From: Escherichia coli
GTDB lineage: Bacteria; Pseudomonadota; Gammaproteobacteria; Enterobacterales; Enterobacteriaceae
DNA length: 64,000 bases
Assembly (NCBI RefSeq): GCF_030013595.1
Contig: NZ_CP122768.1
Reading direction: 5' to 3' (one strand)
In this document: piece after piece, positions 49,701 to 61,700 of the stretch
Layout of the letters: every line of letters begins with the position of its first letter
How positions within the stretch are numbered: the first letter of the stretch is position 1
Made by a program: the position numbers

Positions 49701-52700
49701 CTGGACGGTTTTACATCGCGCGGCTTTGACGATCACAGCAAACTCTTCTTTCCTCAATCTGATGCTCACTTTGTGCCGCCAACGGTAACGGAAGAGGGCA
49801 TCGTCTGGCCGGAAGGACCACGCCCACCGTCGCGTGACTATACGCCGCTGTATGACGAACTACGCCATGAACTGGCGATTGATTTCTTTATTCACGACGG
49901 TGGCGTCGCCAGCGGCTGGGCGATGCAGGCGCAACCGGGCGATAAACTCACGGTGGCAGGTCCGCGCGGTTCGCTGGTGGTGCCAGAGGATTACGCGTAT
50001 CAGCTGTATGTCTGCGATGAATCCGGAATGCCCGCACTGCGCCGCCGCCTGGAAACGTTGAGCAAACTTGCCGTTAAACCGCAAGTTAGCGCGCTGGTTA
50101 GCGTGCGGGATAACGCCTGTCAGGATTATCTCGCGCACCTTGATGGTTTTAATATCGAATGGCTGGCACATGATGAGCAGGCAGTAGATGCGCGTCTGGC
50201 GCAGATGCAAATCCCTGCCGATGATTACTTCATCTGGATAACCGGCGAAGGCAAAGTCGTTAAGAATTTAAGCCGCCGCTTTGAAGCGGAACAGTATGAT
50301 CCACAGCGGGTACGTGCAGCGGCTTACTGGCACGCAAAGTAACTGATATATAAAAAGAAAAAGGCTGACGATTTCTCGTCAGCCTTTGCTATGTCTGGCC
50401 CTGCTGTCTCTTAATTGGTTGTGTAATTAATTGAAATTAAACAGGTAAATGCAATTTATTTTTTATCGATATGCCTTTTTGTATGCCTATTGGGAAAAAC
50501 ACGCTTTCTTCAACAGGGAATAAAAGCCGCTTTTATGGTGTTTTGAAACGGGTTTTAAAATGGCGCTCGTGGTGCTCTCGGGCACTCAATGGCGCTCTGT
50601 GATGTGGCTGGTGGTATGTGGCCGCCATGCATAATGGGGCTGATTTTGTTCATGGCCCGGCAGCGGGTGAGCATTTTTTACCATATTCAGGGTAAAAATG
50701 GGCGAAAAAGTTCATTTCTGGCATGGCCTGAAATGCCACGCAGCCCGCGCCGCGTGTGCTCTTGCCGGGGAAAACGGCGCGGAATAATGACCGCCACCCC
50801 ACCTTATGGCGGGCAGTCCCACGAAATCCCGGTTATTTCCGTTTATTCCCGGATTAATCCCGCCTTCTCCCGCATTCTCCCGGCTGTTCCCGGAATTAAT
50901 CGCCGTGGGGTGGTGGTTATCTGGTGTGGTCGTAGTTCTGCCGTAGTCGTTCACCCTCAGCGCAATGACGCGGTTTTTTAACGCCGCTGGTAACGCAACG
51001 CGGGCAGGTCATGACGTGGCTGATATACGCATCACGGGCAGCCAGCCACGTCGCTGACGGGGCGCACATATCCGCCAGCGCCTGGCCGTTGCTGGTGGTG
51101 TTGTCTTCCGGCCATGTTTCGGGCTGGTGCGCTTCCGGTAAATCCGGTGCAGGTAATGCCCGGATAAACTCACACAATGCATCCGGCAGGCTGAATAACT
51201 TATGCATAAATCTGATGTTCTGAATCGCTGAAAACGTGCGTTTTATGGCGTTTTTTCGTGATTTCTGCGTGTTCTGATGTGCTCATTTCGCTGTATCCCT
51301 TGTGTGGCGCGGGCTGCGCGTGTGTTTCGGTGTTCTTTTTTACCGCCAGAAAACGGTAATCAGGCATATAAACACGGCTGTAAGCCGCGCCGCGTCTGGC
51401 TTCGCGTGATTTTGTGCGTCAAAAAGTGCATTTTTGCCCTTAAAAAGCGTTATTCGTAATTCACTGGTAAATGCTCCGCAGGCCGCGCCATTGCTGGCCT
51501 TTTCGCTATTCTGTGTGGTTTTGCTGTTTAACCCGTTTTGCACACTAAAATTGCCTTGCATCCCGCGCCACGTAAGGGATTGCCGGGTTTTTATGTTGCG
51601 TTTTTTGCCGTGCGTAATATTGTGCAAGTTGGTGGGACTGGTGGGAACTGTGGGAACCGCCTAGAACCACGCGGCTTTCAGTGGTTCCCACCAGTTCCCA
51701 CGTTGGCTTTTTGTGGGAACCGTGGCGGTTATTTTTTGTTCTTTGCGGTTCCCACCAGTTCCCGCAGAGTTCCCACTCAAAAACGAACAATAATCATACT
51801 GATGGTTTTATTATTTACTGATTTATATATGTTTTATTTTTACGGTTCCCACAGTTCCCACCAGTCCCACCACTTTTTCAGTTTTTAAAAACGCAATTTT
51901 TGTGAATTATTCATCAATTGCGAATAACAATGCATTCTGGCCGATGGCGTAAACGCGGTGTTTCTCCCCGTTAACGGAAACGCGTTTTGTGTATCGGCGT
52001 TTCCCGTCCGTGTCGCGGTCAACAATCGCGCCAGCATCGTCAAGACTGGCCGCTATGCGTTTCAGGTCGTAGCCGCTGGCCGCCTCACATAGTGCTTCCG
52101 GTAAAAACCAGTAAACCCGCTCGCCGTTGCTCCCCGGTCGCCACCATCCGGCGCGGGTGCTTACTGGTTCGCTGTATGTGCTGCCCCCTTCAAAGCGTGA
52201 AGCATGGCGGGCGATAAACCCCGCGACGGCCCGGAGTATTTTCACGTCCTCCGATTGCCCCCGCCCACGATAGTCCGCCCACGCATCAAACATCGCTTTC
52301 ACTGCCTCCAGTGCTTCGCCCTGTTTCCACGGCAGAATCCCGGCAGTTATCGCCATTTCCCCGGCCAGTGCGCACAGTGTGAAACGCGCGGCGGCGCGTG
52401 CCTCCTGTCCGGTGCTTACGGGGAATTGTTCGCGCAGTATGGCGTACATATCCGCCAGCGTCTGGCCGTTGCTGTCGGTGCTGGTGGTGTCACTTTCATT
52501 GCGGGAAATCAGCCAGCGCACAAACTCCGGCCCGGCGTGGCCGTAATGGGTAGCCGCATTACCGCGCAGTGTTTCGGCAAATTTCCGGCCTGCTCCCCGG
52601 CGTTCTGTGTCGTTGTCGGGGTTGTGGGGTAGTGCCATTCCGTGAAGACAGTCAAATGCCCCGTAAAGCCGCTGTGCCGGAATATCCAGTAACCGCATTT

Positions 52701-58700: not shown

Positions 58701-61700
58701 CGAATGTCAATTTGGTGGCCCCTGCTGGACTTGAACCAGCGACCAAGCGATTATGAGTCGCCTGCTCTAACCACTGAGCTAAGGGGCCATGGTAGCGGAT
58801 TATAAAGTAACTCCGTGTCGCAATCCAGCCATTACCGCGCGCCTGCTGTTTTTATAAACAATGTATTTTCAATCCGTTATACTTTTCCTGGTGATGTTAG
58901 AAAGGAGTAAATATGGTTGAGGATATTTTGGCTCCAGGGTTACGGGTCGTGTTTTGCGGTATCAACCCTGGGCTTTCATCTGCCGGGACTGGTTTTCCCT
59001 TTGCTCATCCGGCAAATCGCTTCTGGAAGGTGATATATCAGGCCGGGTTTACCGACCGTCAGTTGAAGCCGCAGGAGTCACAGCATCTGCTGGATTATCG
59101 TTGTGGCGTCACCAAACTGGTAGACCGTCCAACGGTGCAAGCCAATGAAGTTTCAAAGCAAGAACTACACGCAGGCGGGCGTAAGCTGATTGAAAAAATT
59201 GAAGATTATCAGCCGCAGGCGTTGGCGATTCTGGGCAAACAAGCATATGAACAGGGATTCAGCCAGCGCGGTGCACAGTGGGGGAAACAAACGCTCACCA
59301 TTGGTTCGACGCAGATTTGGGTGCTGCCAAATCCCAGTGGTTTAAGTCGCGTTTCACTGGAGAAACTGGTTGAAGCGTATCGCGAGCTGGACCAGGCGCT
59401 GGTAGTGCGTGGGCGATAAAAAACGCCACCGAAAAGGTGGCGTTTGTGCAGAGGGCCTAGTGCCGGGTGCGGCGTAACGCCTGATCCGGCCTACCGATTA
59501 ATCGTCCAGGAAGCTACGCAGCACTTCAGAACGGCTCGGGTGACGCAGTTTGCGCAGCGCCTTCGCTTCGATCTGACGGATACGTTCGCGGGTAACGTCG
59601 AACTGTTTACCCACTTCTTCCAGCGTGTGGTCGGTGTTCATATCGATACCGAAGCGCATACGCAGAACTTTCGCTTCACGCGCGGTCAGGCCAGCCAGCA
59701 CGTCGTGCGTTGCCGCACGCAGGCTTTCGGTGGTCGCAGAATCCAGCGGCAGCTCGAGGGTGGTATCCTCGATGAAATCCCCCAGATGCGAATCTTCATC
59801 ATCACCGATCGGCGTTTCCATGGAGATTGGCTCTTTGGCGATCTTCAGCACTTTGCGGATCTTATCTTCCGGCATAAGCATACGTTCAGCCAGTTCTTCC
59901 GGCGTCGGCTCGCGGCCCATCTCTTGCAGCATCTGGCGAGAAATACGGTTGAGCTTGTTGATAGTCTCAATCATATGCACCGGAATTCGGATGGTGCGCG
60001 CCTGATCCGCGATAGAGCGGGTGATCGCCTGACGGATCCACCAGGTTGCGTAGGTGGAGAACTTGTAACCACGGCGGTATTCGAATTTATCAACCGCTTT
60101 CATCAGGCCGATGTTACCTTCCTGAATCAGGTCAAGGAACTGCAAGCCACGGTTGGTGTATTTCTTGGCGATAGAAATAACCAGACGTAAGTTCGCTTCA
60201 ACCATCTCTTTCTTCGCACGGCGGGCTTTCGCTTCACCGATGGACATACGACGGTTGATATCTTTAACCTGCTCGATGGTCAGGCCCGTTTCTTCTTCAA
60301 TCTGCTGCAGTTTCTGCAGGGCGCGATGCACTTCTTCAGAGACATCGTGCAGTTTTTCCGACCACGGCTTGTTCATCGCAATTGCCGCGTTGAACCAGGT
60401 ATCGCTGGTTTCGTTGCCGGTAAACAGGGTAATGAAGTTTTTCTTCGGCATTTTGCACTGCTCAACGCAGAGCTTCATGATCAGACGTTCTTGCGTACGA
60501 ACGCGGTCCATCATGACGCGCATGCTGTTGACCAGGTAGTCAAACTGCTTCGGCACCAGGCGGAACTGTTTGAATACTTCAGACAGTTTCAGGATCTCTT
60601 CCTGAGCGGCAGCGTGACTGCGACCTTTCGCTTTGATGGTGTCACGCGTTACAACGTACTGAGCGCGCAGTTCCGCAAATTTTTCACGAGCCAGTTCCGG
60701 GTCGATGCTGTTGTCATCATCGGCGCTGTCGTCATCGCCATCTTCTTCGTCTTCATCTTCGTCATCGTCCAGATCTTCCTGGGAAAGCTCAGAACCGACG
60801 TGAGTGGCGGTAGGTGCCAGATCTTCTTCTGCGTTCGGGTCAACAAAGCCGGTGATCAGATCGGACAGACGCGCTTCTTCTGCTTCAACACGATCGTACT
60901 GTTCCAGCAGATAGGTGATCGCTTCCGGATATTCAGCAACGGAGCATTGAACCTGGTTGATCCCGTCTTCAATACGCTTAGCGATGTCAATTTCGCCTTC
61001 GCGGGTCAACAGTTCAACGGTGCCCATTTCACGCATGTACATGCGTACCGGGTCAGTCGTGCGCCCGATTTCAGATTCCACGCTGGAAAGCACCTGCGCG
61101 GCGGCTTCGGCAGCATCTTCGTCCGCGGTGTTTTCAGCCAGCATCAGATCATCGGCATCCGGTGCTTCTTCCATCACCTGAATGCCCATGTCGTTGATCA
61201 TTTGGATGATGTCTTCGATCTGATCTGAATCGACGATATCTTCCGGCAGATGGTCATTGACCTCGGCATAGGTCAGATAGCCTTGCTCCTTACCACGGGT
61301 GACAAGAAGTTTCAGCTGTGACTGCGGGTTTTGCTCCATAAGACGGTATCCACACTTATTTCATGAGGTTGGTGTTGGGCGATTGACCCGATGTCCTTCA
61401 GCCGTTAACGCTGAAATCCAACGGTTGTTTACCGCCAACGATAATTACGAGGGCGTACTTATATATTTGCCGCTGCCTCTCAGTGCGGCTGTCGGGGGCT
61501 TCCCGATCGCTCTTCGGCACTTAAGCCGTTAAATCACTTTTTCGCCAGCTCCTGGTTTAATGTCCAGAGCTCCAGGCGTTCTTCGTTGCTTAAACCATGC
61601 GTGCGCTCACGAGCGATTAACTCTTCCTGGCGCAGTTCAAGCAGCGAATCAAACATATGGTTGAGTGAGTCGGTGAAGGTTTGCTCAGCAATATTCTTAT

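Follow-up and report, generated by a model that had tools for sequence, protein, structure and literature searches.

The stretch of DNA analysed here (the window) comprises 64,000 nucleotides of an Escherichia coli chromosome (contig NZ_CP122768.1 of assembly GCF_030013595.1) and contains an island of about 8.3 kb inserted at the tRNA gene ileX. The island is very probably an intact, recently mobile integrative replicon with RNA immunity of the type found in the satellite phage P4. As demonstrated at the level of sequence, it entered this chromosome recently by site-specific integration. Together with its relatives it is best read as a family of compact (approximately 8-10 kb) and so far undescribed integrative predicted replicons of Enterobacterales, which carry no capsid, terminase or lysis gene; on the same best reading, integration and immunity functions of P4 type are joined in this family to a replicon made of a split primase and DUF927 helicase. 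For the lifestyle of the element we lean, with moderate confidence, towards dependence on a helper phage, as in the phage-inducible chromosomal minimalist islands (PICMI); helper dependence and packaging are the parts of this reading that we infer.

Site of insertion and boundaries

A single tRNA gene with anticodon CAU was called in the window by ARAGORN (Table 1). It matches ileX of strain K-12 base for base across the aligned tRNA sequence, and the identical gene is annotated as tRNA-Ile by RefSeq in sister genomes. In K-12 the site is empty: the gap between nfeF and ileX is 53 bp, with no gene in between, which agrees with the K-12 gene order given in the initial annotation of this DNA. 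In the window, nfeF and ileX are separated by the insert (50396-58712). Both junctions were aligned with the K-12 empty site; the interval given initially, 50394-58712, proved essentially exact, and its description as a tRNA-integrated island, inserted at the 3' end of ileX and absent from K-12 at that site, was borne out.

The same alignment defined a 15-nt core, TGGTGGCCCCTGCTG, identical to the 3' end of the tRNA at the right junction (attR). At the left junction (attL) a shortened core was found, corresponding to the weak partial copy of the tRNA end that had been noticed before. The arm-type repeat TATGCCT occurs six times in the island, five copies lying within approximately 190 nt of the junctions and one elsewhere. 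The paired arm repeats are intact on both sides, which would fit an element living partly as a circle.

Recent integration of the island

The island was compared with the copy carried by E. coli ETEC1716. Only 1 difference was found over 8,302 bp of the island (0.012%), versus 541 differences over 18,041 bp of the left flank (3.0%) and 36 over 5,288 bp of the right flank (0.68%). The last single-nucleotide polymorphism (SNP) of the left flank lies at position 50393, three bases before the attL core. The break in identity coincides with the att sites and is therefore as expected for site-specific integration into different chromosomes. In strain HCP5S3_I2 the left flank is exactly as in the window, and the island differs at 102 positions. 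An old, probably immobile element, as the partial left copy had been taken to suggest, does not agree with the near identity of the island in diverged flanks, with a break placed at the attL core, or with the intact arm repeats.

Copies of the replication genes located next to yicC (see below) share homology with the island beginning only at about 50494-50523. The ileX and yicC versions differ in a segment that comprises alpA, ORF292, int, att and approximately 120 bp of the left end. These parts are contiguous only in the circular form, and the exchange fits, again, an element that would exist partly as a circle.

Four length alleles of attL, CTG(GTGG, GTG, G or no base)CCCTGCTG, were present among 12 near-identical copies of the island, and all four occur among islands that are 0-4 SNPs apart over 8.3 kb. 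The attR core was the intact tRNA end in all 12 copies. The islands of ETEC1716 and JP538 have 0 SNPs between them and yet carry different attL alleles. Sequencing errors are an unlikely source of these alleles, because they recur in assemblies from different laboratories. The attL site evidently changes far faster than the rest of the element, and the 11-nt attL of the window is, from this comparison, a very recent shortening of a copy with 14 of the 15 core nucleotides and no sign of age. The shortening may be due to integrase action at attL, to imprecise integration or to slippage in the TGGTGG repeat.

Strain HCP5S3_I2 (NZ_CM149870.1) carries a second, different tyrosine integrase gene beyond the island int, where ileX and mug would be expected (locus L018, 9456-9759). 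In this strain the ileX site would seem to be occupied by a tandem or composite element.

Gene organization

All genes of the island are on the minus strand and read away from the tRNA, in the order int, ORF292, alpA, the Ash/Icd open reading frame (ORF), ORF98, ORF104, the Toprim primase, the DUF927 helicase, the iteron origin and ORF96 (Table 1). From the Ash/Icd ORF to the helicase they form a chain in which each ORF overlaps the next by 8-20 nt. Every item of the order first proposed (int, an ORF in cargo position, alpA, three small coupled ORFs, primase, helicase and iterons) was found to be present.

The annotated P4 genome was compared with the island in both directions. The island integrase is 35% identical to P4 Int, and the AlpA-like protein is 41% identical to P4 ORF88 (E=1e-11). 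The Pfam matches of the AlpA-like protein, HTH_17 (9.8e-4) and Phage_AlpA (i-E 2.4e-3), are both weak and above the published threshold for AlpA (PF05930 at E<=1e-5; PMC8628076). ORF98 and ORF104 occupy the position of P4 epsilon, orf151 and orf106, each overlapping its neighbours by 8 nt; neither gave a Pfam or PHROG match.

ORF96 has invariant residues H64, C68, C71 and C82 (alignment numbering) and is zinc-finger-like. Its homologs, found at the same position in the Salmonella (47% identity) and Providencia (36%) relatives, are confined to Enterobacterales (Enterobacteriaceae and Providencia), and the family has no Pfam or PHROG match. Next to ORF96 lies a phased array of CGGGA repeats, a candidate protein-binding site for packaging, partition or regulation; in the Salmonella relative a similar CCGGGAT array is located near the far end. 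Patches conserved in the stretch from the origin to ORF96 are candidate cis sites alongside the CGGGA array.

The G+C content is 0.40-0.44 across ORF292 (56250-57250) versus 0.57-0.63 across the primase and helicase genes (52000-54750). The island is thus mosaic in composition, in line with module exchange.

Table 1. Positions of the island features in the window, listed from the tRNA gene towards the left junction
Feature	Position	Strand	Evidence or remark
ileX, tRNA-Ile(CAU)	58713-58788	minus	3'-terminal 15 nt (58713-58727) form the attR core
Right att arm	58540-58589		TATGCCT at 58571 and 58583 (12 bp apart), inverted copy at 58540
P4-family tyrosine integrase (int)	57250-58524	minus	NCBIfam NF007246, 521.7 bits (cut-off 434)
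ORF292, integrase-contiguous	56370-57248	minus	no family match
AlpA-like helix-turn-helix regulator/excisionase	55982-56236	minus	PHROG 66, E=5e-12
Ash/Icd ORF, P4 eta/kil-like	55358-55963	minus	long form, 201 aa; PHROG 6928, E=1.3e-50; NCBIfam phage_ICD_like, E=7e-20
Promoter-like site in the position of P4 P_LE	55835-55864	minus	TTGCCT-18-TATATT just upstream of the leader RNA; consensus match only
isrK-like (seqA-like) leader	55749-55828	minus	Rfam RF01394, 60.7 bits (gathering score 50)
Upstream C4 target GCAAAAGG	55777-55784	minus	84 nt upstream, just before the terminator hairpin
Terminator hairpin in leader	55754-55770	minus	terminator scan
C4/CI-type antisense RNA	55613-55700	minus	Rfam RF01695, 79.6 bits (gathering score 45)
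Downstream C4 target GCAAAAGGA	55566-55574	minus	126 nt downstream; overlaps the Shine-Dalgarno sequence (AAGGAGG) of the short Icd-like ORF
Short Icd-like form	55358-55555	minus	begins with the ATG served by the ribosome-binding site that the RNA target covers
ORF98	55069-55365	minus	paralog of ORF104, conserved in relatives
ORF104	54762-55076	minus	paralog of ORF98, conserved in relatives
Toprim-domain primase	53726-54769	minus	PHROG 2249 'DNA primase', E=2.6e-50
DUF927 (PF06048) replicative helicase/initiator, Cch/SaPI-Rep-like	51907-53745	minus	PHROG 1139, E=2.5e-74
Predicted replication origin	51620-51880		GTGGGAAC-type iterons around an AT-rich stretch (~51780-51842), directly downstream of the helicase gene
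ORF96	50917-51207	minus	homologs in relatives; only gene beyond the origin
Phased repeat array	50827-50900		~7-8 units, ~10-bp phasing, TCCCGG/TCCCGC (CGGGA on the gene strand)
Left att arm, integrase-specific	50407-50522		two TATGCCT arm-type repeats at 50470 and 50482, 12 bp apart
attL core remnant TGGCCCTGCTG	50396-50406		displaced ileX 3' end, 4 nt shorter than the 15-nt core; K-12 empty-site alignment

Antisense-RNA immunity module

Two structured RNAs, a C4/CI-type antisense RNA and an isrK-like leader, were detected by Rfam inside the Ash/Icd ORF, and the c4-a1b1 target was also matched, below threshold. In P4 the CI RNA and seqA are likewise located inside eta (PMC10111431). Over 182 aa the Ash/Icd ORF shares 42% identity with the P4 eta/cI region, and the CI RNA region shows approximately 70-79% identity to P4 at the DNA level. 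RefSeq names the product an ash family protein, and the Providencia ortholog carries PF10554.

The second C4 hairpin has the loop UCCUUUUGC, whose sequence is complementary to both target sites of Table 1. Corresponding combinations were identified in the relatives: the window loop UCCUUUUGC goes with GCAAAAGG(A), the Salmonella loop UCGUGAGUG with CACUCACGA, and the Providencia loop UCCAGUAACU with AGUUACUGG(A). The matched targets of the relatives are CACTCACGA in Salmonella and AGTTACTGG and AGTTACTGGA in Providencia, at offsets as in the window; in the complementarity comparison of the Salmonella relative only the downstream site was found, and not the upstream one. Loop and targets change together across genera, and such compensatory changes argue strongly for a working RNA switch that defines element-specific immunity types, as in phages P1 and P7. 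The Icd ORF heads the chain of overlapping ORFs, and a block of Icd should therefore silence primase and helicase, as inferred from the P1 and P4 precedents.

The module resembles the c4/icd/ant immunity of P1 and P7 in that the antisense loop pairs with an upstream site and with the icd ribosome-binding site, and in its element-specific immunity types. It differs in the products of the controlled operon, which are primase and helicase where the phages have an antirepressor; AntA is nevertheless present in some relatives of the island. The ratio of nonsynonymous to synonymous substitution rates (dN/dS), calculated by the Nei-Gojobori method for window genes versus diverged E. coli copies, was 0.3-1.15 for the Ash/Icd (eta) ORF, consistent with constraint mainly on the RNA and not on the protein.

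An Rfam int-alpA RNA motif (RF02996, 59.1 bits) lies between int and a 313-aa gene in the Salmonella relative (locus L007, 5041-5106); Rfam did not detect this motif in the window island.

Replication module

Over 117-150 aa the primase shares 33% identity with the toprim part of P4 alpha, and its relatives carry PF13362 (Toprim_3). The helicase showed a partial match to the NCBIfam profile of the SCCmec Cch1 helicase (E=3e-21), and its homologs carry PF06048. DUF927 is a very large family, which includes fused primase-DUF927 proteins. The helicase called in the initial annotation is not one in the sense of P4: it is DUF927/Cch-like and not the D5-type helicase part of P4 alpha.

The iterons reported initially were confirmed by a repeat search. 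A perfect 30-nt inverted repeat (51630-51659 and 51843-51872) is built of GTGGGAAC-type units, and further copies are located nearby. Iterons occur at the same positions across genera and differ in sequence, being GTGGGAAC in E. coli, GTGGGGAC in Salmonella and GTGGTTAC in Providencia; from these alignments the iteron sites co-vary with the replicase/initiator.

Replicons of Staphylococcus aureus pathogenicity islands (SaPI) and other phage-inducible chromosomal islands (PICI) have this arrangement of separate primase and helicase genes and an origin placed immediately 3', whereas P4 has ori plus crr. With SaPI and SCCmec (Pri, Rep/Cch) the island shares the separate primase and the Cch/Rep-like helicase followed by iterons that flank an AT-rich segment, a likeness based on the partial Cch1 match and on general knowledge of SaPI origins. 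It differs from them in hosts, integrase, regulation (the Stl repressor versus the antisense RNA of the island) and packaging modules.

Distribution and conservation of the family

In a survey of 5,426 complete E. coli genomes, the replication block (50523-55963) was found at 94-100% identity in 31 genomes, the integration module in 17 and the full island at ileX in 14. In the non-ileX copies examined the block is located between yicC and dinD and is accompanied by another integrase, another gene of approximately 317 aa and another alpA.

Relatives were identified in Salmonella (helicase identity 81%, at yicC), Brenneria (72%, at tRNA-Pro) and Providencia (59%, at a CAU tRNA, with an integrase 64% identical to that of the island). 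The order shared by the relatives is int, a gene of approximately 300 aa, alpA, optionally AntA, Ash/eta with the C4 RNA, one or two small ORFs, Toprim, DUF927, the origin and an ORF96 homolog. Only part of this set was seen in the Brenneria element, in which homologs of alpA, Ash and ORF96 were not called and no C4 RNA scored above threshold. None of the three relatives has capsid, terminase or lysis genes.

The dN/dS values were 0.03-0.10 for int, 0.03-0.09 for the primase and 0.06-0.15 for the helicase, and by this measure the three genes are under purifying selection. Values of 0-0.35 were obtained for ORF98 and of 0.05-0.49 for ORF292; alpA showed no nonsynonymous change relative to two diverged copies. 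The element had been called degenerate and decayed at first. This description is not supported: all ORFs are intact, the compact gene set is kept across genera, the core genes are under purifying selection and the immunity RNA co-varies with its targets.

Several sister copies carry insertions, namely a segment of approximately 3.5 kb with aph(3')-Ia that interrupts the ORF96 region and the IS21-like insertion sequence (IS) ISEc12 (strains ETEC4090, ETEC1732 and ETEC1734). The island can, judging from these copies, acquire resistance cargo. In strain cq9 the int gene of an otherwise identical copy is annotated as frameshifted (locus L015, 7254-8518), which may reflect decay of this individual copy or an assembly error. 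Two relatives (NZ_CP027586.1, locus L005, 7486-9006; and locus L009, 13410-13889) continue past the ORF96 homolog with additional genes: a transcription activator of the Mor family, encoded on the opposite strand, a PerC-like pseudogene, a fragment of a single-stranded DNA-binding protein (SSB) gene and an annotated 82-nt 'tRNA-Tyr' not called by ARAGORN. The Mor-type activator in the 'late zone' of these relatives could be a helper-control function that the window element lacks.

Comparison with P4, PICI and PICMI

P4-like satellites have been defined by seven markers: int, AlpA, 'epsilon' (for which the Phage_ASH profile PF10554 is used), alpha (PF03288), Sid, Delta and Psu (PMC8628076). The island scores three of the seven, with the tyrosine integrase (PF00589) and Ash (PF10554) among those present; for alpha only the toprim segment matches, the helicase being PF06048. 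The initial designation as a P4-like satellite thus holds for the layout, which is that of P4 minus gop-beta, cos, psu-delta-sid and ori, with homologous Int, AlpA and eta; it does not hold for membership, at three of seven markers.

As in the P4 family (Moura de Sousa & Rocha; PMC8628076, PMC10085698), a P4-family integrase is found at a tRNA 3' end and paired arm repeats flank the core; in the annotation of P4 attP, paired 12-nt arm repeats of this kind likewise stand to either side. The order int, gene, alpA, eta/Ash with embedded CI/C4 RNA and seqA-like leader, small ORFs, primase, iterons and att is also common to both. Unlike P4, the island has no homologs of Sid, Delta, Psu, Epsilon, cII, gop or beta in the homology searches and no P2-type cos. 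Its replicase is split into Toprim and DUF927 proteins, whereas P4 has a single alpha with a D5-type helicase, and its origin is a single iteron block beside the helicase gene rather than ori plus crr.

The PICI model of SatelliteFinder has five components (PMC10085698). Three of them (integrase, AlpA and primase-replicase, in order) are present in the island, which corresponds to 'Type C'. Type C comprises more than 6,000 loci that were set aside as ambiguous by the authors, and by their account P4 itself would also come out as a PICI of Type C (PMC10085698). Compared with the four-zone scheme that Williams and co-workers gave for Gram-negative PICI such as EcCICFT073 (PMC10111431), the island has the inward-facing int, alpA, unidirectional genes and absence of tail and lysis genes, as well as the 'Bro/immunity' zone with C4/isrK RNAs (and AntA in some relatives) and the primase zone with downstream ori. 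The 'Primase' family of that scheme includes DUF927 (PMC10111431). In contrast to PICI, the late zone of the island is nearly empty (ORF96 only), with no capsid-morphogenesis homolog, TerS or Rpp, and an additional gene separates int from alpA.

The PICMI of Vibrionaceae (PMC10803314) are likewise small, with a core of int, an int-overlapping or contiguous gene, alpA and primase, no capsid-remodelling or packaging genes and large non-coding stretches. They differ in their fis-adjacent integration, DUF3987/DUF5906 primase, size of approximately 6 kb, lack of any reported C4-type RNA immunity and use of a virulent vibriophage as helper. Of the PICMI features, the gene core and the int-contiguous gene are present in the island; the primase type (Toprim_3 plus DUF927) and the site (ileX) are different. 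In PICMI, int, the int-overlapping gene, alpA and primase suffice for a satellite that is packaged as concatemers (PMC10803314).

The integrase-contiguous gene ORF292

The ATG of ORF292 follows the int stop codon by 1 nt (TAATATG), and its Providencia counterpart (34% identical) overlaps int by 4 nt. An exhaustive profile search defined a family of 76 representatives of approximately 240-340 aa, and no Pfam domain was found in any of 48 aligned members. ORF292 has an N-terminal winged helix-turn-helix (HTH) domain weakly resembling Xis/MerR, a beta-rich middle and a helical C-terminus. With Foldseek, an AlphaFold2 model built from the family alignment (pLDDT, the confidence score of the model, 83) matched only uncharacterised proteins of Enterobacterales and Pasteurellaceae, and no viral structural match was obtained.

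In PICMI the integrase-overlapping gene, of unknown function, is needed for excision (PMC10803314). ORF292 may fill this role, a link based on position, and it looks closer to the PICMI gene than to random cargo; it had first been labelled a cargo ORF. A strictly integrase-coupled gene was considered. The coupling is true here and in Providencia and is weakened by distant members in other islands, satellite-like or not: one is located upstream of a module of the order HTH_17 - Delta-like - ASH - primase, and another in an unrelated island.

Packaging functions and route of transfer

Capsid-hijacking genes of the sid/delta/psu type had not been evident in the initial annotation, and six-frame and profile searches were negative as well. 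The P4 proteins Sid, Delta and Psu compared with the six frames of the island (tblastn) gave nothing below E=0.6, and no PHROG or Pfam match to them was obtained. No island match was found to the helicase part of P4 alpha, Epsilon, ORF151, ORF106, cII, Gop or Beta, and six-frame tblastn revealed no pseudogene remnants of the missing P4 genes. Capsid-morphogenesis, small terminase and packaging-redirection genes were not matched by any ORF in PHROGs, NCBIfam or Pfam. The 19-nt cohesive end of P2/P4 cos was not matched with up to 5 mismatches, and there was no similarity to the 400-bp P4 cos region.

Some candidates were rejected. ORF96 as a Delta/Ogr-like activator and ORF98 and ORF104 as Epsilon-like proteins failed in profile comparisons: the ORF96 family reached an hhalign probability of 0.4% against P4 Delta, and the small-ORF families showed no similarity to Epsilon, ORF151 or ORF106. 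A lambda cosN-like sequence, CGGCGGCGACCT, at 54546 (minus strand) inside the primase gene has 1 mismatch in 12 nt and no cosB-like context, and is probably due to chance.

Within the helper-dependent lifestyle that we moderately favour, the element could work as follows. In the quiescent state the RNA would block Icd translation and cause early termination, as in P1 and P4, leaving the replication genes off. A signal from an infecting or induced helper phage would activate the alpA promoter, and AlpA, Int and perhaps ORF292 would excise the element. Primase and helicase would then replicate it from the iteron origin, and the copies, probably multimers, would travel in helper capsids as in PICMI, with no capsid remodelling.

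Several observations weigh against an intact element with this mode of life. The attL core of this copy is without 4 of the 15 nt, and its excision is possibly impaired. The excision role of ORF292 draws on position and a weak fold resemblance, and distant members of its family are not always beside an integrase. No helper is known for the island, and no cos or pac site was identified in it. Comparison with 50,697 phage records gave no similarity to any part of the island (by megablast for the island as a whole and by blastn for its 1.5-kb origin/ORF96 region). These 1.5 kb, which lie downstream of the helicase gene and comprise the origin, ORF96 and the surrounding non-coding DNA, match no E. 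coli genome beyond the 31 carriers. Among 2.9 million viral contigs, 3 distant relatives were found, none of which looked packaged or was informative. The replication block is rare (31 of 5,426 genomes), and conjugatively mobilised islands can encode DUF927 proteins as well (PMC7449626).

Some of these observations would suit an integrative plasmid-like replicon that has no dedicated helper, excises and replicates on its own, moves by occasional generalised transduction, transformation or co-transfer, and is kept by integration and perhaps by a benefit to the host. The integration, immunity and replication functions are all present and none for packaging or transfer; the element is rare and has no sequence in common with any phage. 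However, AlpA together with C4/Icd immunity and an inward int is the hallmark layout of P4 and Gram-negative PICI (PMC10111431). Near-identical copies in chromosomes that are approximately 3% diverged imply efficient horizontal spread, and generalised transduction of a segment of this size would usually bring in flanking DNA through homologous recombination, whereas the identity breaks at att. We consider a helperless replicon rather unlikely.

Improbable, and more so, is a mobilisable island that hijacks a conjugative plasmid or an integrative and conjugative element (ICE), in the manner of MGIVflInd1 and MGIVchHai6, which carry int, an HTH recombination-directionality factor and DUF927 and of which some reside at the yicC 3' end. 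DUF927, HTH and int are conserved in IncC/SXT-mobilised islands, several of them at yicC (PMC7449626), and the closest relatives of the replication module also adjoin yicC. On the other hand, no MobI homolog, relaxase or match to another mobilisation family was found among the island ORFs in PHROG, NCBIfam and Pfam. In the mobilisable islands the xis-DUF927-HTH and mobI units are divergent and carry AcaCD or SetCD boxes, whereas the window island is a single unidirectional operon controlled by C4; its Toprim primase and Icd-like gene are features related to phages and satellites, and no copy was found on a plasmid.

The view of the initial annotation, a decayed P4-like satellite or truncated Gram-negative PICI that has lost its capsid/packaging module and is immobile, is very improbable: the layout of P4 minus sid-delta-psu and cos, the shortened attL core of this copy, the frameshifted int of one sister and the IS or aph(3')-Ia insertions of others would suit it, but the 'reduced' gene set is conserved across genera (59-81% protein identity), pseudogene remnants are absent, selection on the core genes is purifying, immunity RNA and targets co-vary, divergent chromosomes carry essentially identical islands and the helicase family differs from that of P4 alpha.

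We propose only tentatively, as a possibility that falls short of the helper-dependent reading in general, that the family represents undescribed minimalist satellites of enterobacteria. These would combine RNA immunity types of the P4/P1 kind with a SaPI-like primase/DUF927 replicon and no capsid or packaging gene, and would spread in the capsids of a still unidentified helper; the hypervariability of attL would be a scar of the integrase.

Satellite finders discard elements made of int, alpA and primase as ambiguous. The island is comparative evidence that at least one such family is intact, and that the class usually discarded as 'incomplete' would contain live elements. It has moved recently between E. 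coli lineages, including enterotoxigenic strains from pigs, one such copy having the aph(3')-Ia insertion. If helper-dependent, it would extend the minimalist satellite lifestyle of marine Vibrio to enteric bacteria and offer a tractable system for minimal packaging needs; if not, it would be a self-replicating integrative element without a known transfer route. Either way, this is a modest refinement of the known biology of P4/PICI/PICMI-type elements and introduces no new principle.

Other differences in the neighbourhood

Outside the island, two further differences from ETEC1716 were observed. In ETEC1716 an IS4 element is inserted between mug and rpoD (locus L001, 11963-13300), which is absent from the window (at about 59440). 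In the window, approximately 1.9 kb between fadH and ygjK (32912-34844) have no counterpart in ETEC1716; this segment contains an ORF of 452 aa (33239-34597, minus strand) with internal repeats (HTITFT..., IAAAMVS...).

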